A stretch of 64,000 bases of DNA from Dehalococcoidia bacterium (GTDB taxonomy: Bacteria; Chloroflexota; Dehalococcoidia; GIF9; UBA5629): the NCBI GenBank assembly GCA_041653995.1, contig JBAZEK010000001.1, positions 1,030,613-1,094,612 on the forward strand, in the 5' to 3' direction. Shown here piece by piece: positions 4,358 to 43,143 of this stretch. The notes beneath the pieces are model-generated. The model worked only from the letters and a program-made list of their open reading frames with translations. It was not told the origin of the DNA and did not search any database. Within the stretch, counting starts at the first letter, position 1. Each line of letters opens with the position of its first letter. The translations under genes and the position numbers were made by a program.

Positions 4358-4600
4358 TTGAAAGCTCGTATACAGAAATGGGGAAATAGTCTTGCTTTGC
4401 GTATCCCCAAGTCTTTTGCTTCAGAAGCAGGTTTGCAAAGAGAAACCTCTATTGAAATTTCACTATCAGAGGGAAAGCTCATAATAACACCATTGGCTAA
4501 TCCGAAATTTACTCTTAAACAGCTATTGGCAAAGGTTAATAAAGAGAATTTGCATCATGAGACGGATACTGGCCCCGCCGCAGGTAACGAAGCATGGTAA
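4358..4600 (+). CDS. AbrB/MazE-family antitoxin
   Basis: 80 aa; IQKWGNSLALRIPK swapped-hairpin AbrB/MazE motif; overlaps downstream toxin gene. Confidence 0.75.
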   Translation: MKARIQKWGNSLALRIPKSFASEAGLQRETSIEISLSEGKLIITPLANPKFTLKQLLAKVNKENLHHETDTGPAAGNEAW

Positions 4601-4940
4601 GCGCTTCACCTATATTCCAAGATGCGGAGACATAGTGTGGATAACCTTAAATCCTCAAGCAGGACATGAACAATCAGGACGCCGCCCCGCCCTGGTAGTT
4701 TCACCTGTTAGTTATAATGATAAGACAGGGTTGGCCGTCCTTTGTCCCATCAGCAGCATTGTCAAGGGCTACCCTTTCGAAGTACTACTTCCAGAAGGAT
4801 CACCAGTGGCGGGGGCAATCTTATCTGACCAGGTAAAAAGCATGGATTGGCGTATTAGAAATGCAGTACTATTATGCACACTGCCTGCCGGAAATATCTC
4901 TGAGGTGCTCTTAAAACTGAACACCTTGTTATCACACTAA
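4557..4940 (+). CDS. MazF/PemK-family endoribonuclease toxin
   Basis: GDIVWITLNPQAGHEQSGRRPALVVSP matches the MazF/PemK core; start uncertain (only in-frame ATG is 4557, overlapping antitoxin by 44 nt). Confidence 0.7.
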   Translation: MRRILAPPQVTKHGKRFTYIPRCGDIVWITLNPQAGHEQSGRRPALVVSPVSYNDKTGLAVLCPISSIVKGYPFEVLLPEGSPVAGAILSDQVKSMDWRIRNAVLLCTLPAGNISEVLLKLNTLLSH

Positions 4941-5137
4941 ACAAATGCAATAAGGTCGTAGCCGGGTTGCGACTTGGACTACTTTACGATACGGCCTAAC
5001 AACTCTATACCGTTCGCAATATGAGTGTACATGCATAATAAAGTCAGCTTTAAATTCTGACACGCCGGCTTGACTGTGCCTTAATTTTCCCTTAATATTT
5101 CGCTCAACCATGACGTGAGGTTTAGGAGGATTGAAAT

Positions 5138-7201
5138 ATGGTGACAATGCTGAGGCTCTGCATAGCCCTGATTATCATTATCGCATTGGTCCTGCCAGGA
5201 ACAGGTTGTATTAAATTGGGCAAACTGCCGGGAAAACAGGCCGCGGAAAATAAGACTGCAGCATCAGGCGTCACGGCCGGGGGAACTGCCGGACAGTCAG
5301 GATCACAGGCGCCGGACACGGCGGGCAATCAGCCCGGTCAGGGCGGACAACCGGGCGCCCAACCCTCCGGCCAGGAGGCACAGGTCATTACCGGCGGTGG
5401 TGGAGTTGCCGTTGCCAACTGGATCGGCACCTGGCAATGCGGCAACTTTAAAATGTATCTGAACCAGGCAGGTGACCGGGTAACTGGGTGGTACGAGTAC
5501 GAAAACAGCGACATCGAAGGCACTGCTACCGGCAACACTCTCACCGGTACCTGGACTGTATCAGGTGTTAAATATGGTTTTCAGATTGTTCAGTCCTCTG
5601 ACGGCAAATCCTTTTCCGGCCGTTATAACCAGGGAACTTCAAGCAATCAAGGTGGATCATGGTCATGCACAAGGATAAGCACGGCCATGCCCACTGCAAA
5701 ATCATCAGGAGAAAATTCCCAGGTAATCACCCAGGGAGGAGGCGTGGCCGTTGCCAACTGGATCGGCACCTGGCAGTGCGGCAACAATAAAATGTACTTG
5801 GACCAATCAGGAAATCAGGTGACCGGGTGGTTCGATTCTGAAAATAGCGATATTGAGGGCTTTGCCACAGGCAATACACTTGTGGGTACCTGGACCAAGG
5901 GCGGAGTCAAATATGATTTCCAACTGGATCAGTCGTCTGACGGTAAATCATTTGCCGGACATTTTCGCCAGGGATCATCAGGCGCATGGACGGGAGAATG
6001 GTTCTGTATACGCACCAGCAGCGCCAGACCTCCGGCGAAACCAGCCACATCATATCCCCCCTCAGCCATACAGACTGCAAGCTGGACAGGTACATGGGAA
6101 TGCAATAATTATAAAATGTACCTGACCCAGACAGGCAGCAAGGTGACCGGCTGGACTGAACTGGATAATGGTGACATCGAAGGCTATGCAACCGGTAACA
6201 CAATTGTCGGCACCTGGACACTCTCCGGAATTGAATATGATATTCAGCTAAACCAGTCATCCGACGGCAAATCCTTTACAGGCCATTACCGTCAGGGTTC
6301 ATCAGGCAATTGGGCAGGAAGCTGGCCCTGCACTTTTATAACCAACGCACAGCCTCTGCCAAAGTCCGCAGTTCGATCTCAGCCTGCACCGACAGCACCC
6401 CCCACAAGCTGGACCGGCACATGGCAGTGCGGCCAGAAACAAATATGGCTACTTCAGACGGGCAGCCAGGTCATTGGCTGGTATGATGAACAGAGCGGTG
6501 ATATTCAGGGCTATGTCACAGGAAATACACTGGTAGGAACCTGGGCGGACGCCTCGGGTGAAAAAGATATTCAGCTGTCCATGTCCGCAGACGGGAATGC
6601 TTTTTCGGGTCATTACCGCACCAGCCCTTCAGCAAGCTGGATCAGCCACTTCTCCTGCACGAAAAAAAGCGCGGAATTACCCGCACCCAAAGTAACATTT
6701 GATATACAGCCCGTAAGTATTACCAGGGGGATGTCCGCGCAGTTATCCTGGAGCACTATACTGGCTACTTCTGTAGATATTAAACCGGACATAGGTCCCT
6801 GTGGCGCTAATGGCAAAATAAATGTCAAGCCCGACGCAGACATCTCATATACATTGAGCGCGAGCAACCCATTTGGCGGATCTAAAGTAACAGTTCCCCT
6901 AAAGGTAACATCGCCGAACTGGAGCGGGGAATGGGACTGCGGAAGCTTTGGGCATATGATACTCACCCAATCCGGCAACCAGGTTAACGGAATATATACA
7001 TACCAGGGCGGTAAAATCAGTGGCTATGTTAACGGGAATAAGCTTGCAGGAACGTGGTCTGAGGACCCGACCCATAAAGCTCCTGATGATGCGGGTGGTT
7101 GCGAATTCACCCAGTCAGCAGATGGTCTTTCCTTTACCGGTTATTATGACTACGGGTTTTCAGGCGCCGTGAGTCCCTGGAACGGGAAAAGGATTAGATA
7201 G
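5138..7201 (+). CDS. secreted/membrane-anchored protein with five tandem ~105-aa Cys-pair repeats and one Ig-like domain
   Basis: 687 aa; N-terminal hydrophobic signal/anchor, Gly/Gln/Pro-rich linker, then repeats of W-x-G-T-W-x-C-G...M-Y-L-x-Q-x-G-x-x-V-T-G-W...D-I-E-G-x-A-T-G-N-T-L-x-G-T-W...Q-S-S-D-G-K-S-F-x-G-x-Y-R-Q-G-S-S-G-x-W-x-G-x-W-x-C; repeats also >80% identical at DNA level between copies 1 and 2. Confidence 0.7.
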   Translation: MVTMLRLCIALIIIIALVLPGTGCIKLGKLPGKQAAENKTAASGVTAGGTAGQSGSQAPDTAGNQPGQGGQPGAQPSGQEAQVITGGGGVAVANWIGTWQCGNFKMYLNQAGDRVTGWYEYENSDIEGTATGNTLTGTWTVSGVKYGFQIVQSSDGKSFSGRYNQGTSSNQGGSWSCTRISTAMPTAKSSGENSQVITQGGGVAVANWIGTWQCGNNKMYLDQSGNQVTGWFDSENSDIEGFATGNTLVGTWTKGGVKYDFQLDQSSDGKSFAGHFRQGSSGAWTGEWFCIRTSSARPPAKPATSYPPSAIQTASWTGTWECNNYKMYLTQTGSKVTGWTELDNGDIEGYATGNTIVGTWTLSGIEYDIQLNQSSDGKSFTGHYRQGSSGNWAGSWPCTFITNAQPLPKSAVRSQPAPTAPPTSWTGTWQCGQKQIWLLQTGSQVIGWYDEQSGDIQGYVTGNTLVGTWADASGEKDIQLSMSADGNAFSGHYRTSPSASWISHFSCTKKSAELPAPKVTFDIQPVSITRGMSAQLSWSTILATSVDIKPDIGPCGANGKINVKPDADISYTLSASNPFGGSKVTVPLKVTSPNWSGEWDCGSFGHMILTQSGNQVNGIYTYQGGKISGYVNGNKLAGTWSEDPTHKAPDDAGGCEFTQSADGLSFTGYYDYGFSGAVSPWNGKRIR

Positions 7202-7331
7202 GAGCATTATTGGTTTATGGTAAGTATTTTGGCTTCTATATTTAGTGCCAAATAACCAATATCCCATTGAATACCAGTCCATGCTAAAAAGAGATAAGTG
7301 GTGGTAGTATTACCTGGGGGCAGGTCATTTT

Positions 7332-7407
7332 TGGTGGACCTGGGGAGATTCGAACTCCCGACCTCCTGAATGCAAATCAGGCGCTCTCCCAATTGAGCTA
7401 CAGGCCC
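7332..7407 (-). tRNA. tRNA-Ala (anticodon UGC)
   Basis: Reverse complement GGGCCTGTAGCTCAATTGGGAGAGCGCCTGATTTGCATTCAGGAGGTCGGGAGTTCGAATCTCCCCAGGTCCACCA; cloverleaf with G3:U70, anticodon loop TTTGCAT, encoded CCA. Confidence 0.9.
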
Positions 7408-7468
7408 GCAAGACTACATATTATACTAAATCCGCTTCTGTTTGCTAAACGCCAGTGCGGCGATATAG

Positions 7469-8026
7469 CTATTTCTTGCCTTTGGCTGGTTTAGATGGAC
7501 GCGGCTCCGGTGAGCCCATCCAGCGCTCGTAGTGCACGCGCTCCGGCTTGAACCTGTCCTCCATGCGCGGCCTCTCGTCCGGATAGCCTACGGAAACGAG
7601 GGCGATCGGCACTATCCTGGTCGGCATGTTGAGCAGTTTCCTCATACCGTTCATCCTTTCCACCACCGGATAGACGCCGACCCACACCGCCCCCAGTCCC
7701 AGATCATGTGCGGCCAGCAGGATGTTCTGCGTGGCCGCCGAGCAGTCCAGCACACCCCTGCCTCTGGTCAGCTCGAGGCCGCTGTCGTTACACACCAGTA
7801 TGGCAAGCGCGGCTTCCTTGAGCATATGCGCGTGCGGATGAAAGGTCGGCACCTGTACGAGCGTCTTGCGCTCGGTGATGACCACGAAATGCCACGGCTG
7901 CTCATTGGCTGCCGAAGGGGCTGCCATCCCGGCCCGCAGGAGTTGCTCGACAACTTCCGCCGGCACGCGGTTATCCGTATATTTCCTGATGCTTCTGCGC
8001 GTCATGATTGATTCAAATGTTTCCAT
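7469..8026 (-). CDS. nitroreductase family protein
   Basis: 185 aa; N-terminal SIMTRRSIRKY nitroreductase signature. Confidence 0.8.
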   Translation of the reverse strand: METFESIMTRRSIRKYTDNRVPAEVVEQLLRAGMAAPSAANEQPWHFVVITERKTLVQVPTFHPHAHMLKEAALAILVCNDSGLELTRGRGVLDCSAATQNILLAAHDLGLGAVWVGVYPVVERMNGMRKLLNMPTRIVPIALVSVGYPDERPRMEDRFKPERVHYERWMGSPEPRPSKPAKGKK

Positions 8027-8050
8027 CGGTTCACCTCGTAAGCGCCGGAT

Positions 8051-9532
8051 CTATATACGCCGCCTGACCCTGGCAATCCAGCGCCCGATTAAAACGATCA
8101 GTGTAATGACTACCGCCGCCAGAACATAAGGCCAGATCATCTCGTAAAGCGGTGTGGGCGGCGGTTGCCTGTATCCGGTTAAATTCACCTTGAGCCTGTT
8201 GTCCAGTCCGCCGGCTATATGGAAAGTAGTCGCAGTCCTCTTGCCTTCTTTCTCGACAACTATCTTATATGTGCCGTAGAAGCCGCGCATTCTGGCGATG
8301 CCGTCATCACCCGTGTACACATCGCCGCGCGACCACCATTTATCACGGATAAGAGTCAGCAGGCGGTTATAGGCCGGCTTTTTCGTCATATCCATCCGCA
8401 ACAGCCCGGCCGGCGCCCCCTGCCAGGCGCCACTATCCGACAGGTCCCACCAGGTTATGGCCTGCACGGACGGGTGGCTGAAGAGCAGTATGTAGAACTT
8501 CTCCGCGTAATCAGCCTGCTCGTTCTCGCCTGCAGGTGTGGACGGCCACTCGGACGGCTGCTCCTGGGACGATATGCCCGTCCTGGGCTTGCCGCTCAAC
8601 ACGGTCACTTCGGTGAAATGAATGGGGGCATCGAAATCCTTGAACCGCTCGCAGGTATCCCAGACTTGGTATAAAGGCCAGTTGCCGCGGTGCATATGCG
8701 ATTGTATGCCTATGGCATCGAATTTACCCTTCTGCCTGACGATCCCCTGGAGCAGATCGCTATAATCCTGGTCGGTGCGAAAATCGTTGATTATGAGCGT
8801 CGACGTCGGGCAGGCCGACCTGGCCCAGCCCAGCGCATCCGCGCAGACCGTCACAGGTGTACGCTGGGACATCCACTTGCCCACCCGGGTGCTCACCTGC
8901 GCGCTCATGGTCGGCTCATTCACAACATCCCAATAATCGATCGTTCCGCAGAATTCACCGGCAATCTCCTTGACCCGCTTCTCCTGCGCTTTTTGCATAT
9001 CATCGGGCCCGACGGGCGCCCAGCCGGGCACCGATTCAGCCCAGATCAGAGGATGTCCCTTTACCGTGATACCCCTTTTCTCACACCATTCCGCAACCAT
9101 CTCGAGCATAATGGCTGATGACTGGCCCTGCTGCTCTTCATAGCTATCCCAGTAAAAAGGCGCGGTGCCGTAATTGAAAAAAGCGCTCAATGCTTCAGCC
9201 CAGTCCTGGTTGACTGCGGTGGGCCCGTTCTCGGCCAGCGGCGCCAGGCCGGTTCCGAAAAGGAAGTCATGGCTCTGCTGCTCGTAGTATACGCGCGCGC
9301 CCCTCACAGGAACGTTGTTCTCGTCCAGCACCTGTATAACGCCATCCCCCTTGCGTATCTTCTCGATACGGTCGCCGGCGCTCTGCATAATGAACCACTC
9401 AAATATCCCATTGTAAGCCTGAATGATGACATTGCCCGCGCTGACCCCAGGCGCCTGGCAGGCCGCCGCAGGCACAAGCAAAGAGACAACCACAATGGTC
9501 AGCGTCGCTATATAAAAACATCTTCTGTTCAT
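8051..9532 (-). CDS. glycoside hydrolase family 10-like (endo-beta-1,4-xylanase-like) protein with N-terminal signal/anchor and C-terminal TM helix
   Basis: WDVVNEP (acid/base Glu) and IHFTEVTVL (nucleophile Glu, cf. ITELD) GH10 motifs; start at internal ATG 9532 (MNRRCFYIATL... hydrophobic) preferred over 9616; C-terminal WPYVLAAVVITLIVLIGRWIARVRRR anchor. Confidence 0.65.
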   Translation of the reverse strand: MNRRCFYIATLTIVVVSLLVPAAACQAPGVSAGNVIIQAYNGIFEWFIMQSAGDRIEKIRKGDGVIQVLDENNVPVRGARVYYEQQSHDFLFGTGLAPLAENGPTAVNQDWAEALSAFFNYGTAPFYWDSYEEQQGQSSAIMLEMVAEWCEKRGITVKGHPLIWAESVPGWAPVGPDDMQKAQEKRVKEIAGEFCGTIDYWDVVNEPTMSAQVSTRVGKWMSQRTPVTVCADALGWARSACPTSTLIINDFRTDQDYSDLLQGIVRQKGKFDAIGIQSHMHRGNWPLYQVWDTCERFKDFDAPIHFTEVTVLSGKPRTGISSQEQPSEWPSTPAGENEQADYAEKFYILLFSHPSVQAITWWDLSDSGAWQGAPAGLLRMDMTKKPAYNRLLTLIRDKWWSRGDVYTGDDGIARMRGFYGTYKIVVEKEGKRTATTFHIAGGLDNRLKVNLTGYRQPPPTPLYEMIWPYVLAAVVITLIVLIGRWIARVRRRI

Positions 9533-9684
9533 TTCCAACCCTGTCAACGAAAATACTTTATCTATTTTAGCACAGCATCCAATCTGTCTATACCGGCCTG
9601 CAGCCGCGAATGCCATTAACCCGACCGATAGTATTTTTTGACTATTGTTATAAACATCAATATAATATATGATAATATGAGTAT

Positions 9685-29661: not shown

Positions 29662-30966
29662 ATGGTCTATTTCGAAATAATCATCATTATCTTTTTGACT
29701 ATGCTCAACGGCTTGCTCGCCATGTCCGAGCTTGCTATTGTCTCTTCACGTAAAAGCCGTCTTGAACAGATGATGAAAAACGGGGACAAGGGGGCGCGTT
29801 CAGCTCTCCGGCTCCTCGAGAATCCCAGCCGGTTCCTTTCAACCGTCCAGATAGGCATCACTCTTATCGGCCTGATCGCCGGTGCATTTAGTGGAGCAAC
29901 GATCGGACACCGCCTTGGGCTTTGGCTGGATTCCTTTCCAGTGATCTCACCATATGGTGACATACTGGGTATAGGTGTTACGGTTATAGCCATTACGTAT
30001 TTATCTGTGATAATAGGTGAACTCGTCCCAAAGCGGATTGCCTTTGCCCAACCTGAGAGGATTGCTGCTTCCATTGCCAGGCCAATGCAGGTGCTCTCGC
30101 TCATATTCACGCCTGCGGTCTGGTTGCTTCACGTATCAACCGAAGGAGTGTTGCGTGTATTCCACATGTCGGCAAACAGGGAAACAAGCATCACTGAAGA
30201 TGAGGTCAAATCACTCATCACCGAAGGGACAAGAGCGGGTGTCTTTGCTCCGCAAGAAAAGGAGATGATCGATGGTGTACTCAGGCTGGCAGACCGCCCG
30301 GTAAGAGCAATCATGACACCGCATTCCAAGATAATCTGGTTGGACTTACAATCAGATCGGGATACTATACTCAAGATACTGGAGACCAACCGCTTTTCCC
30401 GTGTTTTAGTCTGTGATGGAACTCTGGATAAGCCGATTGGCGTTGTGAATGCTAAAGACCTTCTGCCAAAAGCCATGACTTGCGCTGATATTAATCTGGC
30501 TGATTTGATTACACCTTTGCTTTATGTTCCTGAAAACACATCTATCCTTATACTTCTCAATCAATTCAAGAAAGAAAAGGTGCATGTGGCCGCCGTAATC
30601 GACGAATACGGCATGACTAAAGGGCTGGTCACGCTCACCGATGTAATCGAAGCAGTCGCTGGAGATTTGCCGGAACTTGGCGAAGATATGACTCCTGAGA
30701 TTACCCAAAGAGATGACGGATCGTGGCTGATCGACGGCATGCTGCCGACGGATGAATTGGAATCCATCACCGGCATCAGCGTGGGGAAAAGTATGAAGAT
30801 CCTTGCCGGATTCGTAATGGAACAGCTTGGACATATACCGGCAGCAGGTGAGAGCTTCATCTATGGGAGCTATCGGTTTGAAGTGGTGGACATGGACGGC
30901 AACCGTATCGACAAGGTACTCATCCAAAACATTCAAAACGCTGCTGAAGCTCAAAGCTCGGATTAG
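29662..30966 (+). CDS. CNNM/TlyC-family membrane protein (DUF21 + CBS pair + CorC_HlyC)
   Basis: 434 aa; N-terminal 4-TM DUF21, tandem CBS, C-terminal transporter-associated domain. Confidence 0.85.
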   Translation: MVYFEIIIIIFLTMLNGLLAMSELAIVSSRKSRLEQMMKNGDKGARSALRLLENPSRFLSTVQIGITLIGLIAGAFSGATIGHRLGLWLDSFPVISPYGDILGIGVTVIAITYLSVIIGELVPKRIAFAQPERIAASIARPMQVLSLIFTPAVWLLHVSTEGVLRVFHMSANRETSITEDEVKSLITEGTRAGVFAPQEKEMIDGVLRLADRPVRAIMTPHSKIIWLDLQSDRDTILKILETNRFSRVLVCDGTLDKPIGVVNAKDLLPKAMTCADINLADLITPLLYVPENTSILILLNQFKKEKVHVAAVIDEYGMTKGLVTLTDVIEAVAGDLPELGEDMTPEITQRDDGSWLIDGMLPTDELESITGISVGKSMKILAGFVMEQLGHIPAAGESFIYGSYRFEVVDMDGNRIDKVLIQNIQNAAEAQSSD

Positions 30967-31038
30967 CAATCATTATCTTTGGCTTTGCCGCTCCCTTTGA
31001 CGCTCGCCCGCCCGGTTGCGGGCCGTTTTGATCTGGGT

Positions 31039-31275
31039 TTACATGATGTAGGGCGTGCGGCAGCATTTAAGTGCAACACGATGAGAACATATGGTGGGCG
31101 ATACTGGATTTGAACCAGTGACCCCCTGTGTGTAAGACAGGTAAAAACCTTTAATTGACTGGAGCTTATTGATAATCTCTAGGGAAGCCTTACGTTGTCC
31201 TGAAAGAATCATGCTCAAATAGCTTTTACTGATACCTAATTCTTTGGCTAATTGACTCTGTGTTAACTTTTTCAT
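31039..31275 (-). CDS. XRE-family HTH protein whose C-terminal codons read through the tRNA-derived att repeat
   Basis: LTQSQLAKELGISKSYLSMILSGQRK HTH; last ~20 codons (GVTGSNPVSPTI) overlie the 51-bp tRNA-Val fragment. Confidence 0.55.
   Translation of the reverse strand: MKKLTQSQLAKELGISKSYLSMILSGQRKASLEIINKLQSIKGFYLSYTQGVTGSNPVSPTICSHRVALKCCRTPYIM
31092..31142. repeat. att-site direct repeat: 51-bp copy of tRNA-Val(TAC) 3' end
   Basis: TGGTGGGCGATACTGGATTTGAACCAGTGACCCCCTGTGTGTAAGACAGGT identical to 43144..43194. Confidence 0.85.
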
Positions 31276-31530
31276 TTATTTCACCCGCCTTTTTATATCC
31301 TTTAAGCCTGCGTTTCCAATTATCGGTAAATATTGGTACGACTTCTTCTGTCTTCCTTTTGCACTAAAGTTCCCCTGTGGTTTTCTCACAAAATGACAGT
31401 CTACCTCATCAATAAGCCATCTCCGTCCAATGTAGAGTGCATTAATCCGTCCCTCTGACAAAAGCTTACGAACCCGTCTCTCAGATATACCAAGCCTTTC
31501 TGCTGCCTGTGGAACCGTAAGTAGTTTCAT
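31276..31530 (-). CDS. excisionase-family (HTH_17/MerR-like) DNA-binding protein
   Basis: 84 aa; LLTVPQAAERLGISERRVRKLLSEGRINALYIGRRWLI matches excisionase/Xis HTH pattern; adjacent to attL. Confidence 0.6.
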   Translation of the reverse strand: MKLLTVPQAAERLGISERRVRKLLSEGRINALYIGRRWLIDEVDCHFVRKPQGNFSAKGRQKKSYQYLPIIGNAGLKDIKRRVK

Positions 31531-31823
31531 TCAATTACCTTCTATCATTTTAATATTATACCGTTATCGGAATAATGTCAAGTATAATTACAAGCTAAAA
31601 TATCTTTTCTTTTTGCCGCATTTTTCCATAATACTCCGCAGAATTTTTTCAAATCGTATTTAAATTAAGTTTTAAAAGTTCAAGAATGAGGGTTTATAAT
31701 ATGCATATAAACTGGAAGCATATGGAAGGAAGCACGATAGAAAGTTAGAACGTAAGCAAGCGAGTAAGCAAGAAGGAAAGCAGGCGAGCAGGGAAGCTAT
31801 GTTGCTTTCCTTTTTTTAATTTT

Positions 31824-32057
31824 TTGATTCGGAGGTACGAAATGACTGAAAACAAGGTCAAGGAAATTAGATTGAGCAAATGCATGAATCAGAGAGAACT
31901 GGCAGAGAGAGCTCATATCTGTCAAACAGCTATTTCAGACATTGAAAGGGGGGTAAGACTACCATGGAAAGCAGCGTCTGAAAAGCTTGCTATTGCATTG
32001 GGTGTCACAATCGAGGAATTATTCCCAAACAATCTTAGGGGAGGTAAAAATTGCTAA
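31824..32057 (+). CDS. XRE-family HTH regulator
   Basis: 77 aa; MNQRELAERAHICQTAISDIERG. Confidence 0.65.
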   Translation: MIRRYEMTENKVKEIRLSKCMNQRELAERAHICQTAISDIERGVRLPWKAASEKLAIALGVTIEELFPNNLRGGKNC

Positions 32058-32398
32058 ACAAAAATAGAACGTCTTTAAAGCTGGGAAACAAGAAAGTAGG
32101 CTACTTTGAAGGTGATAAATTCATCAAACCCGTAATCGGCTCAAAGCATCTGCTGAAATTTCCTTACCAAGCTTGGGCAATTGATGCCAAAGTATTTGAC
32201 GATGAAATTAAACCTAACGCCAATTATTTTATTGTAAGAGATAGGGAGTCGGGGCTTGAATATAGTTGTACGGTAAAGGACTTCGACAATTTAAAGCGAA
32301 CCATTAACAGAGGGTATGGTAAGCAGTACAGTCTATCTCTAAAACATTGGAAAATAGCAGCTATGGAAGACGCTGAAGCTTCCAGTAACGCAACATAG
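32051..32398 (+). CDS. hypothetical protein
   Basis: 115 aa ORF on island, AT-rich codon usage consistent with neighbours. Confidence 0.4.
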   Translation: MLNKNRTSLKLGNKKVGYFEGDKFIKPVIGSKHLLKFPYQAWAIDAKVFDDEIKPNANYFIVRDRESGLEYSCTVKDFDNLKRTINRGYGKQYSLSLKHWKIAAMEDAEASSNAT

Positions 32399-32579
32399 AG
32401 TAGTGCAGCACCCGTTTTAGTAGTTGGAGGTGCTGTGTAAAAATGGTATTAGACAGAAGGAAAAGGCTGATGGAGGAGGGTATGACTCGCCATGATATTT
32501 CAGGAGCCTACTTATTTAATCAATTCAAGTGAGTTGTAATAGATGGTCATACCTATTCGATGGTCTTAAGGAGGAAAAT

Positions 32580-33026
32580 ATGATTCAGGGCATAGAAAAT
32601 TATATAAATTTAACAGATACCAAGAATGAATGGGCAAAATTTCTAAATGGCTTTGAATGGCATTGGTTCTTTACTCTCACATTTGATAAAAAGGTAAGTG
32701 ATGACTTGGCATACAAGCAATTCTTTAGGTGGAAGAATTGGATAAAGAGTTCAGTAGGACACAGAATTTTCTATCTAATTATTCCTGAGCGTCCCAAGTA
32801 TAAGGGAGATAATACTCATATTCATGGATTTCTTAATGGTGTTGAAAATGAGAAACCCTACATATGGAGAAGGAAATGGGAGGCAATGGCAGGCTTTTCT
32901 CGGATTCAACCCTATGATAGTTCAAGGGGTGCAAGCTATTATCTAGCGGATAAAATTGTATTTAAAGAAGAGGATATTTATCATAGCAAAGACCTAAATA
33001 TGATAAAGATAAATACACTCAATTAA
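32580..33026 (+). CDS. putative rolling-circle replication initiator (HUH endonuclease, Rep-like)
   Basis: ATG 32580 after AAGGAGG; motif I FFTLTF, motif II (HUH) THIHGFL, candidate motif III Y-x-x-K in ASYYLADKIVFK. Confidence 0.5.
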   Translation: MIQGIENYINLTDTKNEWAKFLNGFEWHWFFTLTFDKKVSDDLAYKQFFRWKNWIKSSVGHRIFYLIIPERPKYKGDNTHIHGFLNGVENEKPYIWRRKWEAMAGFSRIQPYDSSRGASYYLADKIVFKEEDIYHSKDLNMIKINTLN

Positions 33027-33094
33027 ATCCATTATATATATCAATATGATTATTACTACAAACATCAATATTTATTTCTTTTACTTTTACTTTT

Positions 33095-33150
33095 CCTTAT
33101 GCCCCTTTTTTATTTTTGCCCCAAATATGAATTAAATATAAATATCTACA
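33095..33150. repeat. iteron-like repeat cluster downstream of rep (GCCCCTTTTTTATTTTTGCCCC ... AAATATAAATATCTACAA)
   Basis: GGGGCAAAAA(T/G)A(A/G)AAAAAGGGG-type motif recurs inverted at ~40250..40275; AAATATAAATATCTACAA recurs at 34199..34216. Confidence 0.45.
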
Positions 33151-33231
33151 ATTAATTGCATAAAATTGGGGCATAGGGAAAAAATCACATATAAAATTCA
33201 AATAGAAAGTCAGGAGGAATCAGTAAGTAAA

Positions 33232-33858
33232 ATGAGTACAATAATTTCAAAACCTACGACAATTCAAATTAGCATGCTTGGGACACATGCCTTTTGTGAA
33301 TATAGGATATATCTTGAGCTTGTTATGGGTTTTAAAGCACGAGGTACACCAGAAATGCTTGAAGGCACAAAAGCACACTCAAGGATAAATACGATGGCTT
33401 TCTTAACGAGAGATTCAAATATTAGCATTGAGGATGCGTTGCTCCAAGCAGAGTCAGACGGAAGAGAAATAACAAAAAGGAACGTACGGGTAACAGGTAA
33501 GATACTACGTGGGAATATCGATGAAATTCACATTGGGCCAAAAGAAATTACGATTATAGATGATAAAAAATGGGCAGAGCATTATCCATCATATAAAAAT
33601 CAAGTCTTTGGCTATTGCCTTGCGTTTAAAGAACAATACAACCCAAAGCAGCCGATATACGGTGCCATAAAGAATTATCAGTCTGGAAAGGAAGTCTGGA
33701 AAAAACAATTTTCAGTTTTGGAAGAGGAATATATAAACGGCATTGTTCAAAGAATACTGGGGATAATTCGTGAGGATATCACTCCAAAACCCATTGGTGT
33801 TAGAGAAGTATGCTGGCAATGTGGATTTAAAAATTACTGCAATGTAAGGACACGATAG
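33232..33858 (+). CDS. Cas4-like/DUF83 PD-(D/E)xK nuclease with 4-Cys Fe-S site
   Basis: ATG 33232 after AGGAGG; N-terminal Cys (HAFCEY), IDEI...IIDDKK (D/ExK), QVFGY (QhxxY), C-terminal CWQCGFKNYC (CxxCx5C). Confidence 0.6.
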   Translation: MSTIISKPTTIQISMLGTHAFCEYRIYLELVMGFKARGTPEMLEGTKAHSRINTMAFLTRDSNISIEDALLQAESDGREITKRNVRVTGKILRGNIDEIHIGPKEITIIDDKKWAEHYPSYKNQVFGYCLAFKEQYNPKQPIYGAIKNYQSGKEVWKKQFSVLEEEYINGIVQRILGIIREDITPKPIGVREVCWQCGFKNYCNVRTR

Positions 33859-33895
33859 CAAAATGGTGGAAAAAGGAAAAAGAAGAAACTAACTA

Positions 33896-34159
33896 CTATA
33901 CTGCCTTGAAACCCACAATAAAGTAATTTGATTTATCAAATATAAGTCTTATCTTGTGTTCTGAATTATCCTTGCCGGCCAGGGCAATTAAGAATGATAG
34001 CTTCTTTGGATTAGTAACTGTCTTAGAAATTGGACGATGGACAATAAAACCCTCAAGTTCAATCTTCACATATCTACAGCCAGTCTTCGGATATGGCAAA
34101 TCCTTCTCTTCCACAATATCTATATATTTGCATATGGCTGAATTTGTCCTTCTTGGCAT
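33896..34159 (-). CDS. hypothetical protein
   Basis: 87 aa ORF on island; no motifs. Confidence 0.3.
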   Translation of the reverse strand: MPRRTNSAICKYIDIVEEKDLPYPKTGCRYVKIELEGFIVHRPISKTVTNPKKLSFLIALAGKDNSEHKIRLIFDKSNYFIVGFKAV

Positions 34160-34526
34160 ATTTATTTCCTTTCTTCCCTTTTCCGCTAAATTTAAACTAA
34201 ATATAAATATCTACAAATTATTATATTAAATCCACAACCAAATTTGAATATGAATGCCACAGATAAATGGCGGAAAAGAAAAAGAGTCTTAGAGATATTA
34301 TTATTTTGTATTATTTTCTTTAATAGTCAGATAGCAAGTGTGGCTAAGGGCAATTTTACCTTTAAAAATATTGAATCTGGTTGTCATTTGTCTAGTGCTT
34401 TAAAAATAGAAAACCTTCACGTGTGAGAAATGCCAGTAGCACGTGTATTAGAAGCGGCATTTTAAATAAAATCTTAGCCCAAAGTCATAGCAAATATAGA
34501 TTGTTGCATGCGTCCTTTTAATACGA

Positions 34527-34610
34527 TAGAATACGGTCAATGTAGTGAGGCTGGGGAGATGAAATATTTACTTGCTTGTTTCATAGCACTATTCGTTATA
34601 TCAGCCTGTG
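34527..34610 (+). repeat. 84-bp module (5' UTR + RBS + lipoprotein signal peptide MKYLLACFIALFVISAC) duplicated identically at 40435..40518
   Basis: exact identity of ATAGAATACGGTCAATGTAGTGAGGCTGGGGAGATGAAATATTTACTTGCTTGTTTCATAGCACTATTCGTTATATCAGCCTG; weaker similarity extends ~80 bp upstream. Confidence 0.8.
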
Positions 34611-36502
34611 CATCTCAAGTCCATGTTGGTGACCAAGCTCCAAACTTCACACTGACAGATATAAATGGTAAACGTATTAGTCTGCAAGATTTTCGTGGCA
34701 AGCAGGTTGTTCTTTATCTTTGGTTTTTATATTGTCCTGAATGTACAGAAGACCTTGCTGAGATTCAAGAGTTGAATAATAATAGTGACGAAAGAGTCAT
34801 TAAGTTCCTAACCATTAACCCAGAAAATTCATCAAAAGACGTTGCGGATTTTTTCACTAAAAATGGATATAGTTTCCCAGTTTTGTTTGATTTAGATGGA
34901 AGTATTTACAAGCAATATAATTTACGACCTCGGTCTGCACCCTACACAATAATTATTGCTCCTGATGGAAAGATTAACAATATTACAGTGGGGAATCTTC
35001 ATTATCAAGGTGGTTTAAAACGGTTAATTGGAGATAACGTAACATCCTTCAGTCCAAGTGCACAAACTCAAAAGACTCCAATAATTATCGTACCCAGTTT
35101 ACAATCTCATGGTGTCGATGAACTTGCTTATGTATCTAGCGAAACGAACACGAACTCTATATATGTCGTGAATGCAAACGGGGAATATATTGCTAACTCA
35201 TCTGGAAAAATGGATGCATTATACCATGTTAGTTGGTCGCCAAACGGAGATAAGATTATTTTTGAAGTGGTTAAAGATATCAATATAGACCAGAGAAATA
35301 TGACCCTTATTTCTTCGTCTGATATTTATTCTCTTGATATTAAAGACCATGAAGAGCGTAGACTTACTTCAAATTATCCGTATAGCAATTGTTCTCCCAC
35401 ATGGATTGAAGACGATAAAATCGTATTTTATTCAACAAGGGGAAGTTCGTATGGCAGTTTTTTACAAAATATATACATCATGAACGCAGACGGAAGTAAT
35501 CAGATAAATTTAACTAATTGTGCAGAGAATGTACCTATGGTATTAGAACCAATATTATCGCCTGACCACTTGTCTGCAGCATATATTACGGGTAAGTTAT
35601 TCGATGAAGATATATATGTGATAAACCTAGTGAATGGAAATAAATTTGAAATAGGCCATAATCCAACATTTGCACCCTGGACTTGGTGGTCTCCAAACAG
35701 TAAACAGATAGCGTATATATCTGCCTCTCTAAACGGGGGGCCTGAATCATTTTATCTCTACGATGTCGAAAAACAGAAACCGATAAAATACTATGATAGC
35801 CCTCAATCTTATTCTATTATGGAAATAGCATGGTCGCCAGACAGTAACAAAGTCGCTATTTTTGAAAAACCGCAGAGCTTGTATGTTTTAGATTGTCTGA
35901 GTTCCAAGTTTACAAAACTTGATGGGATATGTGACTGGGTAGTAGAGATGAAATGGATACCTAATAACCAACAAATAGCCATTATTGGTGACAGGTTTAC
36001 AAACAGAAACTTGTATGTAATTGATATTGGTGAGCAGAGTAAGCATAAAATCAATCCAGAGGGAACGGCAGTCGAGTCGTATCGATGGTCAACTGATAAT
36101 ACAAGAATCATTTATTGCTTAGATGATGGATATCTTTACACAACTTTCCTACCCAACTTAAATACCATAAAACTAATGCAACTTAATAAAAATACGATAA
36201 AAGGGTTAGCTTTGTCACCAGACGGTTTATTAATCGCTGTTGCTCTGAGTGACGATACTCTAACTGTAATTTCATTAAACAATAACAAGGTGTGCTTGTT
36301 AACTAATGATTATTACAATATTGGAGCAATTTCTTGGTCGCAAAACAGTAACATACTTGCATTTGAATACGGAACTTTATGGGATAGTCCGTTTGTATGC
36401 AGTAACATTCAAATCATCAATTTCGAAAACGAGGAACAGTTCATTAAATTAGATAAACCAATCTCAGGACGCTCTCCAATTTGGGCGAGAAAGGAAAAAT
36501 AA
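34559..36502 (+). CDS. exported lipoprotein: TlpA/ResA-like thioredoxin-fold domain (CPEC) + TolB-like beta-propeller
   Basis: lipobox ISAC; APNFTLTDINGKRISLQDFRGKQVVLYLWFLYCPEC redoxin; C-terminal repeated W-S-P-D/N-G/S blades (SWSPNGDKIIF, AWSPDSNKVAIF, RWSTDNTRIIY, ALSPDGLLIAV, SWSQNSNILAF). Confidence 0.75.
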   Translation: MKYLLACFIALFVISACASQVHVGDQAPNFTLTDINGKRISLQDFRGKQVVLYLWFLYCPECTEDLAEIQELNNNSDERVIKFLTINPENSSKDVADFFTKNGYSFPVLFDLDGSIYKQYNLRPRSAPYTIIIAPDGKINNITVGNLHYQGGLKRLIGDNVTSFSPSAQTQKTPIIIVPSLQSHGVDELAYVSSETNTNSIYVVNANGEYIANSSGKMDALYHVSWSPNGDKIIFEVVKDINIDQRNMTLISSSDIYSLDIKDHEERRLTSNYPYSNCSPTWIEDDKIVFYSTRGSSYGSFLQNIYIMNADGSNQINLTNCAENVPMVLEPILSPDHLSAAYITGKLFDEDIYVINLVNGNKFEIGHNPTFAPWTWWSPNSKQIAYISASLNGGPESFYLYDVEKQKPIKYYDSPQSYSIMEIAWSPDSNKVAIFEKPQSLYVLDCLSSKFTKLDGICDWVVEMKWIPNNQQIAIIGDRFTNRNLYVIDIGEQSKHKINPEGTAVESYRWSTDNTRIIYCLDDGYLYTTFLPNLNTIKLMQLNKNTIKGLALSPDGLLIAVALSDDTLTVISLNNNKVCLLTNDYYNIGAISWSQNSNILAFEYGTLWDSPFVCSNIQIINFENEEQFIKLDKPISGRSPIWARKEK

Positions 36503-36527
36503 GAAATTTCAAAAATGGAGACTGAAT

Positions 36528-36824
36528 ATGACTGGCGAATTGGGAAATTTTGTTATCGTCATGGGATTACCCTGTTTAGGAGCGCTGTTAATAGCTTTTT
36601 GTTCATTACCAACCGATAAATGGACAATAAAACACACTTTTATGTTGGTGGGAACTTCACTAATTTTTATTAGCTTTATTTTGCAAGCATATCAGATTAT
36701 TGATAAATACCCTGATAAAAATGAATATATATTTGGATGGTGGATTGTCGGTTTAGCTACCGTTATCATGGCTATAATAGGGCAAATTATTAGAATCAGA
36801 TACGGTAAAAGTTGGTTCCAATAG
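36528..36824 (+). CDS. small 3-TM membrane protein
   Basis: 98 aa hydrophobic ORF directly after lipoprotein gene. Confidence 0.4.
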   Translation: MTGELGNFVIVMGLPCLGALLIAFCSLPTDKWTIKHTFMLVGTSLIFISFILQAYQIIDKYPDKNEYIFGWWIVGLATVIMAIIGQIIRIRYGKSWFQ

Positions 36825-36920
36825 GATAATAAAATAGTGGGAAAGGAAAGAGAAGGAAATTTAATTAGCTATCTATATTTAAGATAAGAGTGACTTATAG
36901 AACTTCATTGAGGTTGGGAG

Positions 36921-37451
36921 ATGCAACAACAGTATCAATGCCCTAATTGTAGGTATCCAGTTGCTTATGGGAATAATTTCTGTGGACATTGTAGACAACA
37001 ACTAATCTGGCAACAATTAATGCCACCTTCACCACCAGTACACCATCAGCAAACACCACAAGGCATTATTGGGAAATCACACGAGCAAAACACTTCTGGA
37101 CAAGGTGGTCAATCAATAATACCCGATGAAAAGCGTATTAAACTTCCAAAACTCAATATTCGTTTCGACTTTGAGTTGTTTCAAGCAATTGAGGACAATG
37201 ACCGTAAACTGGCTGAACAGCTCAAAGCAAAATATGGGGATGATGTTTATAATTCCAATTTTTATAACCTGCTTAGTATCGAAGACGCTAACTCAGTAGA
37301 CTCACTTCATCTTAAACTAGTATCAGTTGAAAAAATGAATTTCAATGATATTTTATGCGAAAGTATCAAAATAGAGACTGAAAAAGTACGCAAAAGGATA
37401 GAGGAGCTTGAGAATATAAAAAATTTACGCAACGGGATTGAGGAAGTGTAA
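36921..37451 (+). CDS. zinc-ribbon (MQQQYQCPNC...CGHC) + coiled-coil protein
   Basis: 176 aa; N-terminal CPNC-x11-CGHC; member of the window-wide MQQxYxCPxC family. Confidence 0.55.
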   Translation: MQQQYQCPNCRYPVAYGNNFCGHCRQQLIWQQLMPPSPPVHHQQTPQGIIGKSHEQNTSGQGGQSIIPDEKRIKLPKLNIRFDFELFQAIEDNDRKLAEQLKAKYGDDVYNSNFYNLLSIEDANSVDSLHLKLVSVEKMNFNDILCESIKIETEKVRKRIEELENIKNLRNGIEEV

Positions 37452-37461
37452 GGAACTGACT

Positions 37462-37505
37462 AAACCCCTGAAACTGGCAGCTCGAGTAAGAAAAATGGCG
37501 GGAAA
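37462..37505 (+). repeat. ~44-bp intergenic repeat (AACCCCTGAAACTGGCAGCTCGAGTAAGAAAAATGGCGG), second copy 39411..39455
   Basis: ~90% identity; each sits between a stop codon and next start; in second copy ATGGCGG is the start of the HEPN-like gene. Confidence 0.6.
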
Positions 37506-37511
37506 GAAAAT

Positions 37512-39368: not shown

Positions 39369-39410
39369 ATAATTTCTTGATATTAAGAAATCGAGGTGTA
39401 CTGGTCTGAA

Positions 39411-39455
39411 CCCCTGAAACTGGACAGCTTGAGTAAGAAAAATGGCGGAAAAAGA
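39411..39455 (+). repeat. second copy of ~44-bp intergenic repeat
   Basis: AACCCCTGAAACTGGACAGCTTGAGTAAGAAAAATGGCGG. Confidence 0.6.
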
Positions 39456-39951
39456 AATGCAACAGGAGGAGCATCCCCTAAATATGGGGAAGCTACTTGT
39501 GAATTTCCAATCACTTGAGATAGCTCTCCGTCTATTTCTTTATAATGATGAAATTGCCTCTAGAGTTTCATCTCCTCAGGCGGTAAACCTAAATGCTATG
39601 AATGCGGGGGATATAGTAGCTGAAAATGCGTTCACAAACTATGATAGTCTAAGTCAACTCATTGATAAATATAATAACCATCCCAACATCATATCGACAG
39701 GTCTAACCATTGATAAGACTTTAGTGGACATACGTGATGCAATAGCTCATGGAAGAGTCGCTGGAGTCACTCCTTTGCTTGTGCCTCCTTTAAAACTAAT
39801 GAAGTTTGATAAACCAAAGAACAAAAGTGTGAAAGTAACATTTAGCGTTTTATTGACAAGGGAATGGTTCATTCTAGAGATGGCTAAGGTTCAAGATGCA
39901 GTTTTTAAAGTCTTTCAAGCTATCCAAATAATACAGAGTGCTAAGACATAA
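39442..39951 (+). CDS. hypothetical protein with HEPN-like R-x4-H motif
   Basis: 169 aa; IRDAIAHGR contains Rx4H; predicted all-alpha. Confidence 0.4.
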   Translation: MAEKEMQQEEHPLNMGKLLVNFQSLEIALRLFLYNDEIASRVSSPQAVNLNAMNAGDIVAENAFTNYDSLSQLIDKYNNHPNIISTGLTIDKTLVDIRDAIAHGRVAGVTPLLVPPLKLMKFDKPKNKSVKVTFSVLLTREWFILEMAKVQDAVFKVFQAIQIIQSAKT

Positions 39952-40434
39952 GTGGTGCCCTCTGAAATCGCTCTGAGGGGCTGAAATCAGGGTGTTGCAT
40001 ATTGAACATGACGGATTCCACCTGTCATTACTATTCCAGCTTAATTAGAGCCTTTAAAGTATTAAACAGTAAAGGTAATAACTCTACTTCCTTTCCCTTA
40101 AGCCCCTTTATTATTTCTTCGCCTAAGTTTCCGTTCAAGTGAATTATGTCGCTTTTAAGACCAACAAACGCTGGTACACCATAAACACGTTTACGTTCAA
40201 GCCAATTATGTCGTTTTGCATATATTATTTCCAGCTTAAATTAACTACAGAAAAATGGGGCAAAAAGAGAAAAAGGGGAATTATATATCAATTTATTGTC
40301 AATAATCTTTGAAATACTATTACTTCATCTGAGAGAGATGCCAGCAGCTAAGTGTAACGGCATTGAATTTTAAATAACTTCTCAGCCCAAAGTGGTAACG
40401 CATATAGGTCTATTGCATAAGTATTGTTCATATA

Positions 40435-40518
40435 ATAGAATACGGTCAATGTAGTGAGGCTGGGGAGATGAAATATTTACTTGCTTGTTTCATAGCACTA
40501 TTCGTTATATCAGCCTGC
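40435..40518 (+). repeat. second copy of 84-bp 5'UTR+signal-peptide module
   Basis: identical to 34527..34610. Confidence 0.8.
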
Positions 40519-41880: not shown

Positions 41881-41907
41881 AAGAAAATCAAAAGGGAGGT
41901 AAAGAAG

Positions 41908-42084
41908 ATGGTAGCAAATAAGAAGAAGTATTATGCAGGGGAATCAGCTAAAGTCTCTGGCAAATACAACGAATGCAGATTGGGCACAGGCAAAACAGGA
42001 GTAACAGCAAATGTCAAGAAGGGGGATACACTCCCACCACATAAAATAGGAGCTCATTGGGAGTTATCAAGAAAATCTAAATAA
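41908..42084 (+). CDS. small basic protein (58 aa), hypothetical
   Basis: strong RBS AAGGGAGG 8 nt upstream; MVANKKKYYAGESAKVSGKYNECRLGTGKTG...; not in ORF track (<60 aa). Confidence 0.35.
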   Translation: MVANKKKYYAGESAKVSGKYNECRLGTGKTGVTANVKKGDTLPPHKIGAHWELSRKSK

Positions 42085-43081: not shown

Positions 43082-43143
43082 TTCTTTTGTGAACTTTTTG
43101 TAGCTAACTTGTGAATATTGTGAAATTGAGCTGTAGTTTTCTT

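Follow-up and report, generated by a model that had tools for sequence, protein, structure and literature searches.

A widespread un-annotated family of predicted calycin-like β-barrels, seen as a tandem array in a candidate surface lipoprotein of a Dehalococcoidia bacterium

The calycins (Pfam clan CL0116) are eight-stranded antiparallel up-and-down β-barrels of 120 to 180 amino acids, and their signature is a first-strand tryptophan that is latched by an arginine or lysine of the last strand (PMC2954199). MORN repeats are built on β-hairpins of ~20 to 26 amino acids that share the motif φ-x-G-x-[W/Y], and their hairpins form an open, elongated sheet. The β-barrel protein Cap15, a cyclic-dinucleotide receptor of CBASS (PDB 7n34), acts as an effector at the cytoplasmic face; it has TM helices at its N terminus and is encoded in a CBASS operon. 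A lipid anchor, a flexible tether and barrels make up the overall plan shared by TbpB, LbpB, HpuA, NHBA and hemophilin, whose barrels come together with handle domains and have long binding loops. Finally, the MliC/PliC lysozyme-inhibitor lipoproteins are single-domain proteins. Here we compare with these systems a gene from a Dehalococcoidia bacterium whose product carries five tandem repeats, predicted to be barrels, behind a candidate lipid anchor.

The gene lies in a window of 64,000 nucleotides, the whole stretch of DNA that was analyzed (contig JBAZEK010000001.1 of assembly GCA_041653995.1), and the sequence-only reading had delimited it exactly: in the ORF list, the coding sequence occupies 5138..7201 on the plus strand and specifies 687 amino acids, with the stop codon within the span. 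Read directly from the sequence, an AGGAGG located 8 nt 5′ of the ATG (5124..5129, plus strand) is its Shine-Dalgarno sequence, a strong ribosome-binding site, and a consensus scan found a promoter-like site, TTGACT-17-TAATAT (5070..5098, plus strand), so called for its match to consensus only. This site sits within a promoter-plus-gene block (5063..7225, plus strand) that is conserved across contigs, with 94 to 96% DNA identity by blastn to the metagenomic contigs L001 and L026. The flanks around the block in these two contigs are unrelated, and in the alignments the similarity begins at the −35 hexamer and ends ~25 nt past the stop codon. Three independent contigs encode the identical 687-aa protein.

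That the product is exported, as previously proposed, is supported by its signal peptide, which is hydrophobic, and by conservation of the lipobox cysteine. The N terminus (MVTMLRLCIALIIIIALVLPGTGC; signal peptide, amino acids 1 to 23, plus Cys24; 5138..5209, plus strand) runs from MVTMLR through a hydrophobic stretch to a lipobox-like LPGTG-C, the order of elements expected of bacterial-lipoprotein signals. The G-T-G-C lipobox is atypical in that glycine occupies position −3 and the usual hydrophobic residue is absent; four homologues (P0004, P0007, P0008, and P0009) have a canonical IAGC, VAGC, or LVGC at the matching site, and both the cysteine and the ensuing [IV]K[LI]G are conserved in homologues. 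We infer that Cys24 is lipidated and that the low-complexity, Gly/Ala/Gln/Pro-rich stretch behind it (amino acids 25 to 89; 5210..5404, plus strand; G17, A10, Q9, and P5 in 65 residues) is a disordered tether.

The five tandem repeats that follow were borne out, each fitting a repeat HMM at E values of 3e-40 to 6e-50, far beyond chance. The unit is ~94 aa long; the start-to-start period of units 1 to 4 is 108 to 113 aa, and the linkers between these first four barrels comprise 15 to 20 aa rich in Pro/Ala/Ser. All on the plus strand, unit 1 spans amino acids 90 to 183 (5405..5686; Cys101/Cys177; E 4e-48), unit 2 amino acids 203 to 296 (5744..6025; Cys214/Cys290; E 6e-50), unit 3 amino acids 311 to 404 (6068..6349; Cys322/Cys398; the unit used for the AF2 model), unit 4 amino acids 420 to 513 (6395..6676; Cys431/Cys507; E 3e-47), and unit 5, which is of a terminal type without the closing cysteine, amino acids 590 to 687 (6905..7198; E 3e-40). 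The opening W-x-G-x-W-x-C is found in five of five units. Other features that had been ascribed to every repeat hold for part of the array: the motifs MYLxQxG, VTGW, DIEGxATGNTLxGTWT, and QSSDGKSFxGxYRQGSSG are present in units 1 to 3 but degenerate in units 4 and 5, and both cysteines are present in units 1 to 4 but only the first in unit 5. Likewise, the closing G-x-W-x-C is replaced in unit 4 by S-H-F-S-C, without the G-x-W, and in unit 5 by P-W-N-G-K-R, without the cysteine. Unit 5 also features a lengthened β5-β6 loop with the motif SEDPTHKAPDDAGG and an additional cysteine, C655, that is not conserved among orthologues, and among the units of the homologues that were compared its closest matches are the terminal ones (52 to 59% identity). 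The number of units in close homologues ranges from 2 to 5, and every complete one has a single terminal-type unit at its end, in which C12 (in unit numbering) is kept and C88 is missing.

The near-identity of repeats 1 and 2 at the DNA level, from which a recent intragenic expansion had been concluded, proved to be confined to a local patch. Here, 56 of 66 positions are identical between 5395-5460 and its partner 5734-5799, rising to 40 of 42 in the core (5405-5446 versus 5744-5785), with an exact run of 29 nt, but over the whole unit the identity is only 68% for DNA and 69% for protein. Outside the patch, the same codon is retained at just 24 of the 55 identical residues, which argues that the duplication is old, and units 1 and 2 are both nearer to unit 1 of a four-unit homologue (77 to 78%) than to one another (69%). 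On the grounds of this codon divergence and of the closer match to the homologue, we rejected a recent duplication. Tandem Repeats Finder reported nothing on the DNA within 5138-7201; the repeats are too diverged at this level.

The Ig-like insert proposed ahead of unit 5 was also recovered, as a predicted PKD/Ig-like β-sandwich (amino acids 512 to 594; 6671..6919, plus strand) with an AF2 pLDDT of 95.0 and several Foldseek matches. The best of these is the PKD domain of the archaeal S-layer protein 1l0q (E 5e-4), and further ones are the HPI S-layer protein (8cka) and the Ig domains of titin and Dscam. The Pfam PKD and Ig models stayed below threshold on the insert, with I-set matching two of eight sequences (best E 0.006). 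Three other membrane-anchored proteins of the window contain the Ig domain of the insert as well, repeated in tandem over long arrays.

For the repeat itself, a disulfide-stapled β-barrel had been guessed, and AF2 predicted such a structure. Unit 3 was modeled (pLDDT 91.4, pTM 0.81) with eight strands in meander order, that is, as the eight-stranded antiparallel up-and-down barrel of the calycins, with the two cysteines on strands 1 and 8. The structural neighbors of this predicted fold are avidins, streptavidin, FABP/CRABP, bacterial lipocalins, haemophores, and Cap15. In addition, the barrel family has a conserved strand-1 G-x-W and a last-strand Arg/Lys, which match the signature of PMC2954199 as residues seen in sequence only: over 481 family units, G8 is conserved at 92%, W10 at 76% (with another 14% Tyr), and the last-strand position is Arg in 58% and Lys in 16% (together 74%). 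In units 1 to 5 of our protein this latch position reads R, R, F, K, and K/R. From the model, we assign the barrel to the calycin (avidin/lipocalin/FABP-like), up-and-down type, as a probable rather than a definite member, so the earlier view that it is not obviously a lipocalin stands for the sequence but not for the predicted fold. Unlike calycins, the barrel is only about 85 to 90 aa long and, in the model, has neither helices nor the 3-10 helix that caps calycin barrels before strand 1 (DSSP assigns residues 1 to 7 of unit 3 to coil). It also differs in being composed of four recognizably similar hairpins, in occurring in tandem arrays in large surface proteins, in having, in one subfamily, a predicted disulfide between β1 and β8, and in showing no significant sequence or profile similarity to calycins. 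The barrel would represent a new sequence family inside a known fold.

In units 1 to 4, a disulfide between the strand-1 and strand-8 cysteines most likely staples the seam at which the predicted barrel closes. Among the family units, C12 and C88 occur together in 32 and C88 alone in only 2 (32/34), while in another subfamily a second, alternative pair (positions 4/67) has both cysteines in 55 units versus one in 8; these co-occurrences argue for real disulfides and for an oxidizing, extracytoplasmic location. Contrary to what had been assumed, the cysteine pair is not a trait of the domain as such, being restricted to one Chloroflexi subfamily (about 7 to 11% of units), and in most of the family positions 12/88 are Thr/Gly.

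The suspicion that no known family covers the domain is supported by profile searches, in which Pfam-A (2025), NCBIfam (2026), and PADLOC gave nothing at threshold for the protein, 46 units, and 43 multidomain relatives. Among individual Pfam models run on the protein and the 46 units, neither lipocalin/FABP (PF00061 and related lipocalin-like families) nor MliC found a match; Avidin (PF01382) missed the protein and fitted 1 of the 46 units (E 0.0063), and META likewise fitted one unit (E 0.028), both below threshold. Compared with MliC/PliC, the domains here are in tandem, and only about 70 residues align. Three increasingly diverse profiles searched against PDB sequences yielded only borderline or repeat-motif matches and no solved family member, a word-indexed profile search that looked for relatives with a name brought up nothing but small “hypothetical” proteins, and literature searches found no description of this barrel family. 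Unlike Cap15, the barrels here are exported, tandem, and predicted to be disulfide-bonded; the architecture differs, and neither a relevant PADLOC match nor defense-gene neighbors were found. To the TbpB/LbpB/HpuA/NHBA/hemophilin group, from which our protein differs in phylum and envelope type, no sequence similarity better than that to NHBA (E 0.3 to 0.8) was detected.

Given that the structural neighbors include avidins and lipocalins, it is tempting to speculate that the protein is a scavenger of their kind, in which the cup of each barrel would bind a hydrophobic or cofactor ligand (a vitamin, lipid, quinone, or corrinoid fragment) and the array would raise the capture capacity at the surface of an auxotrophic bacterium. 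The fold neighbors are all ligand-in-barrel proteins, the calycin latch residues are conserved, and the PDB profile searches produced weak matches to a helix-less FABP variant (E 6e-4) and to zebavidin (E 0.03). However, the barrel is small (~85 residues) and its loops are short, and its many conserved tryptophans may fill the core and leave no cup. Moreover, the Avidin model fits a single unit, hhalign returned probabilities of only 0.8% for streptavidin and 0.5% for avidin (approximate target sequences), and no transporter gene is linked at the loci examined; we consider such a scavenger distinctly unlikely. With I-FABP, again an approximate target sequence, the hhalign probability was 25%, and from these probabilities homology to streptavidin, avidin, or I-FABP is not demonstrable.

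Each of the four β-hairpins composing the barrel opens with φ-x-G-T-[W/Y], and this internal periodicity is seen both in the motif spacing (~20 to 26 aa) and in an autocorrelation peak at shift 20 (z = 4.0). The motif is shared with MORN repeats, and the ~94-aa unit could alternatively be read as four MORN-like repeats in an extended sheet, that is, as an open MORN-type array. Indeed, the diverse profile matches MORN1 (6t69) at a whole-sequence E value of 1.6e-7 (0.05 to 0.09 with a narrow profile), but no single stretch does better than an i-Evalue of 0.0095 and compositional bias is involved, the Pfam MORN models (PF02493) have no match at E ≤ 10 in the protein or the 46 units, and the Pro-rich linkers sharply delimit the units. 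Whereas MORN repeats stay open, the prediction here is that the four hairpins close into a discrete, bounded barrel, and we regard an open array as scarcely probable. Choline-binding/glucan-binding repeats were rejected, as their matches were sub-threshold and a closed barrel was modeled.

The barrel family comprises 5,233 clusters at 50% identity, from Chloroflexota, Bacteroidota, Acidobacteriota, Firmicutes, and a methanogen. The domain is thus un-annotated yet not rare, and its members form a large, phylogenetically broad set of extracytoplasmic modules. Domains that co-occur with it (PKD, Big_9, Cu_amine_oxidN1, Laminin_G_3, CARDB, cadherin-like, and cohesin) are of extracellular or surface types, 76% of the family proteins have the barrel at the end, and in two proteins the order is ECF sigma domain, hydrophobic TM-like segment, barrels, with the barrels standing where a sensor domain would be located.

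With respect to function, we favor, with moderate confidence, a lipid-anchored surface array of tether, four barrels, PKD/Ig-like domain, and terminal barrel that serves noncatalytic, multivalent binding. The 11 positions that are invariant or at least 90% conserved in the A2 alignment include six glycines and three tryptophans, the only polar ones being Q21 and D66, which lie in Q-x-G and D-G motifs and can be read as turns. The tether would hold the noncatalytic array off the membrane, where the presentation of several barrels could allow multivalent capture of a ligand or surface, and the internal barrels with their staples, together with the Ig domain, would at the same time form a stalk, rigid and resistant to oxidation and proteases, that carries the distal terminal barrel. 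Counting against this explanation, the terminal unit retains an unpaired first cysteine, the lipobox is atypical at −3, the model lacks the 3-10 helix of canonical calycins, no ligand, partner, or conserved operon was found at the loci examined, and the conserved residues look structural.

Alternatively, the protein might be a purely structural part of the envelope, its barrels acting as inert, rigid beads of a stalk, spacer, or S-layer-like coat in a cell without a conventional wall, with no specific ligand. The conserved residues look purely structural, nearly all being Gly, Trp, or hydrophobic, and a passive spacer would fit them as well as a binder. Copy number varies freely across homologues, the best structural matches of the insert are S-layer proteins (1l0q and 8cka), its Ig domain forms the long arrays of the three other membrane-anchored window proteins, and the prevalent position of the barrel at the protein end points in the same direction. 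In contrast, the barrel has the sensor-domain position in the ECF-sigma/TM fusions, its occurrence as a single terminal module on otherwise unrelated proteins is more typical of a binding module, and all characterized structural neighbors bind something. We rate a purely structural role as unlikely.

The gene neighborhood bears on a further possibility, namely, that the repeat is a carbohydrate-binding module or lectin-like repeat tethering the cell or its enzymes to polysaccharide. The gene is surrounded in the window by MazEF, tRNA-Ala, a nitroreductase, and a membrane-anchored GH10 xylanase, the last located 850 nt downstream on the opposite strand. A carbohydrate-binding role would fit this xylanase, the Trp-, Tyr-, and Gly-rich composition, relatives that join the barrel with Laminin_G_3, Sde0182_C (the C-terminal domain of a cellulose-binding protein), Ig_Rha78A_N-like, BiPBP_C, and PKD domains, and matches to the OAA-lectin SBD and choline-binding repeats. 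However, all of these lectin and choline-binding matches are sub-threshold, the GH10 gene is missing beside the orthologous cassette in L001, and the other loci examined are without glycoside hydrolase, SusC/D, or sugar-transport linkage. The conserved tryptophans, moreover, appear to alternate as strand-core residues rather than to form a surface platform, and on balance we find carbohydrate binding very unlikely. Across nine loci (the window, close orthologues, and distant relatives), no recurrent partner gene or conserved operon was found, and the neighborhoods all differ. Two Chloroflexi loci have an NrpR-like regulator and a second Ig-bearing lipoprotein in common, a pair that is not seen in the window.

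A bolder reading, which we offer as speculative and highly doubtful, is that the barrel is an unrecognized, widespread class of minimal ligand-binding module, an “avidin-sized” calycin that evolved from four MORN-like hairpins, and that our protein serves as a multivalent surface trap for a scarce small molecule, for instance a vitamin or cofactor that the often auxotrophic Dehalococcoidia have to scavenge, the stapled subtype being an adaptation for extracellular stability. If this were true, the family would offer binder engineering a scaffold from nature and would itself be a cofactor-capture route of a new kind.

Because the barrel fold is already well known, we see the finding as useful more than as a surprise. 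The predicted barrel would be among the smallest natural calycin-like barrels and closely resembles de novo designed eight-stranded barrels; its visible four-hairpin internal repeat bears on the origin of closed barrels from hairpin repeats, and two alternative putative disulfide staples appear in separate subfamilies. For the Dehalococcoidia, the locus provides a compact promoter-plus-gene cassette for a putative surface lipoprotein, found in different genomic contexts in related populations. For the family at large, more than 5,000 clusters (50% identity), spread over several phyla of bacteria and at least one archaeon, are without a Pfam or NCBIfam model, and defining the family would give an annotation to thousands of “hypothetical” surface proteins.

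The protein studied here is encoded by an open reading frame of 687 amino acids (5138-7201, + strand), exactly where the sequence-only reading had placed it. An AGGAGG Shine-Dalgarno sequence lies 8 nt 5' of the ATG and a promoter-like element, TTGACT-17-TAATAT, lies upstream (5070-5098, +); we regard the gene as real with high confidence, and it appears monocistronic, that is, probably transcribed alone. A profile HMM built from the five units recovered all of them (residues 90-183, 203-296, 311-404, 420-513, and 590-687) with E values of 3e-40 to 6e-50, a repetition far beyond chance, so that the proposed five-repeat array can be accepted with high confidence. The motif ascribed to every repeat held in part: W-x-G-x-W-x-C opens 5/5 units, but the closing cysteine is limited to units 1 to 4 (C101/177, C214/290, C322/398, and C431/507), unit 4 ending in SHFSC and unit 5 in PWNGKR.

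The same reading had taken near-identical DNA in units 1 and 2 as a sign of recent intragenic expansion. The near identity is genuine in a short patch (56/66 positions, with a core of 40/42 and an exact run of 29 nt), but over their whole length the two units share 68% DNA identity and 69% protein identity. With the patch excluded, the codon is kept in 24 of 55 identical residues, and Tandem Repeats Finder returned no match within the gene. Moreover, unit 1 of P0002, a four-unit homologue, is 77%, 78%, and 67% identical to units 1, 2, and 3, which are 61 to 69% identical among themselves. Since units 1 to 3 are each nearer to this homologous unit than to each other, the duplications are old, and a recent expansion is not supported.

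Outside the barrels, the sequence starts with a signal peptide (residues 1-24) ending LPGTG/C. In homologues the lipobox reads IAGC, VAGC, or LVGC and precedes the [IV]K[LI]G also present in the target, which makes a lipoprotein, presumably lipidated, the best reading of the target. A segment rich in Gly/Ala/Gln/Pro by composition follows (residues 25-89), and the linkers between barrels measure 15 to 20 aa and are rich in Pro/Ala/Ser. The Ig-like domain suspected before repeat 5 was borne out with high confidence as a predicted PKD/Ig-like sandwich (residues 512-594, pLDDT 95.0), whose best structural match is an archaeal S-layer PKD domain (1l0q, E 5e-4), with further matches to the Deinococcus HPI S-layer and to titin and Dscam Ig domains. 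Unit 5 represents a subtype whose β5-β6 loop is extended and conserved, W-S-E-x-P-[ST]-[YF]-x-x-P-x-D-A-G-D, a loop present in 89/475 units across the family; in the Chloroflexi sequences examined it marks the terminal unit, the one exception being P0008, whose first unit carries it as well. The same PKD/Ig-like domain recurs in the window as 5 and 7 tandem copies in two divergent genes (56282-57880, -; 58107-60068, +) and as 2 copies in a third, lipoprotein-like gene (60380-61465, -); in the products of the divergent pair, the Ig copies follow an N-terminal zinc ribbon (CPxC...CxxC), a Q/P-rich region, and a TM helix.

Each unit is predicted with high confidence to form a small eight-stranded barrel. 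Cap15 and FABP/CRABP led the Foldseek matches, none at E ≤ 1e-3; a Cap15-like identity is disfavored. An alignment of 481 units shows Gly at position 8 in 92%, Trp (76%) or Tyr (14%) at position 10, and Arg (58%) or Lys (16%) at the position two residues past the second cysteine site. The latter two positions correspond to the latch of first-strand Trp and last-strand Arg/Lys that defines calycins (PMC2954199). The model lacks the N-terminal 3-10 helix that is the third feature of calycins, and hhalign gave probabilities of 0.8% for streptavidin, 0.5% for avidin, and 25% for I-FABP (manually entered target sequences). For these reasons, the unit is calycin-like in fold and is placed in no calycin sequence family.

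The family consensus, xxxxxWxGTWxTxxGxMxLTQxGxxVTGTYxxxxGxIxGTVxGNxLxGTWxE...GxFxFTLSxDGxSFxGxWxYG...WxGxWxGTR, repeats a φ-x-G-T-[W/Y] motif at the starts of strands 1, 3, 5, and 7, and the autocorrelation of alignment columns is highest at a shift of 20 (z = 4.0), with additional peaks at 46 and 51. The barrel thus resembles four similar hairpins, which likely explains its weak matches to MORN, choline-binding repeats, and FABP. PDB sequence searches with three profiles yielded matches of three kinds only. A helix-less FABP variant was borderline (E 6e-4) and zebavidin reached E 0.03; the third, the MORN1 match of the most diverse profile (E 1.6e-7), is a multi-stretch, compositionally biased alignment whose best single stretch scores 0.0095. 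A reading of the units as a MORN array is disfavored.

In the unit model, Cys12 ends strand 1 (residues 8-12) and Cys88 lies within strand 8 (residues 84-92). These strands would adjoin in the closed meander barrel, where an antiparallel register pairing W10 with R90 would also pair C12 with C88. Of the 481 units, 32 have both cysteines, 2 have only C88, and 22 have only C12; the C-terminal unit keeps C12 without C88 in 14/14 close (Chloroflexi-type) homologues having such a unit, and C601 of the target is this conserved unpaired cysteine. Thr/Gly occupies these sites in most of the family, and another subfamily has an alternative pair at positions 4/67 (jointly in 55 units, singly in 8). That two independent pairs co-occur so strongly speaks for genuine disulfides and an extracytoplasmic location; the target protein is probably disulfide bonded and extracellular.

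The neighbors of the gene in the window are unrelated in function. Upstream lie enoyl-CoA hydratase/AtuA genes, an XRE regulator, and, immediately adjacent, a MazE (PF04014)/PemK-MazF (PF02452) toxin-antitoxin pair with overlapping reading frames (4358-4940, +); downstream lie a tRNA-Ala (-), a nitroreductase (-), a GH10 family glycoside hydrolase (8051-9616, -), and an ArsR regulator. The N-terminal signal/TM segment and C-terminal TM helix of the GH10 protein make it a probable membrane-anchored extracellular xylanase. Independent assemblies show the same arrangement. Two further contigs, L001 from a Dehalococcoidia MAG (5648-7819) and L026 from ENA (641-2815), carry the gene at 94 to 96% DNA identity, which is confined to window positions 5063-7225, from the -35 hexamer to a point some 25 nt beyond the stop codon, with unrelated flanks. 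Conservation within these limits suggests that promoter and gene make up a self-contained cassette, either exchanged or moved to a new place; neither repeats nor an integrase were seen at its borders. In another part of the window, a ~13-kb block (30000-43500; GC ~0.35 versus ~0.54 elsewhere) is bounded on one side by a tRNA-like match, a weak one (31095-31160, -), and on the other by a Val-Arg-Leu-Val tRNA cluster (43144-43470, -); it resembles an island acquired horizontally through insertion at a tRNA. At two loci of more distant Chloroflexi homologues (L016, 4872-5894, and L020, 2627-3679), the barrel lipoprotein is followed by a second lipoprotein with a G/Q/S-rich tether and Ig-like domains, and NrpR-like regulators (PF01995) lie on the flanks together with genes of nitrogen assimilation (glutamate synthase, Amt, and P-II). 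The other relatives' loci inspected had no neighbors in common.

Among 193 family proteins, 77 have two units, 56 three, and 33 one, with a maximum of seven. With one near-duplicate dropped, the last barrel lies ≤12 aa from the C terminus in 146/192, and the first starts ≤60 aa from the N terminus in 118/192. Accompanying Pfam domains are of extracellular types (Cu_amine_oxidN1, PKD, Big_9, BiPBP_C, Laminin_G_3, Sde0182_C, CARDB, cadherin-like, and cohesin). In two relatives, P0028 and P0081, an ECF sigma factor (regions 2 and 4) and a hydrophobic TM-like segment precede 3 to 5 barrels, which puts the barrels at the position of a sensor domain, a sigma/sensor architecture in one polypeptide. 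The five-barrel protein P0012 and an otherwise different L001 protein (8047-9504, +) share a C-terminal module, KIGPLSCFIATAAYGSE...LR.FRD..L...YY.VSPPLAEFIA, which may be an anchoring or sorting domain.

The conserved barrel positions (Gly, Trp, Q-x-G, and D-G) include no candidate catalytic set and look structural, Q-x-G and D-G being read as turns. This best supports a noncatalytic surface array, in which a lipid anchor, a flexible tether, rigid stapled barrels with the Ig domain, and finally a terminal barrel would serve to bind a ligand multivalently. The main rival is a purely structural role, with which the same conservation is compatible. Avidin-like small-molecule scavenging and carbohydrate binding are narrower versions, less likely but compatible with the data.

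Finally, no threshold match to Pfam-A (2025 copy), NCBIfam (June 2026), or PADLOC was obtained for the target protein, 46 units of 16 proteins, or 43 multidomain relatives, so that the early impression of a repeat without a known family is upheld with high confidence. Searched exhaustively by HMM, 1.84 billion representative proteins yielded 5,233 clusters at E ≤ 1e-3 (2,063 at E ≤ 1e-10), which establishes a large and widespread family with similar confidence. Judged by genome-hit titles and source names, it spans Dehalococcoidia, other Chloroflexi, Anaerolineae, Chitinophagaceae and Flavobacteriaceae (Lutibacter, Maribacter, and Winogradskyella), Acidobacteria, Eubacteriales, Syntrophomonadaceae, and Methanoregula. 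The barrel is thus a new, unannotated sequence family inside a well-known fold class, notable for its minimal size, for the symmetry of its four hairpins, and for its alternative disulfide staples.
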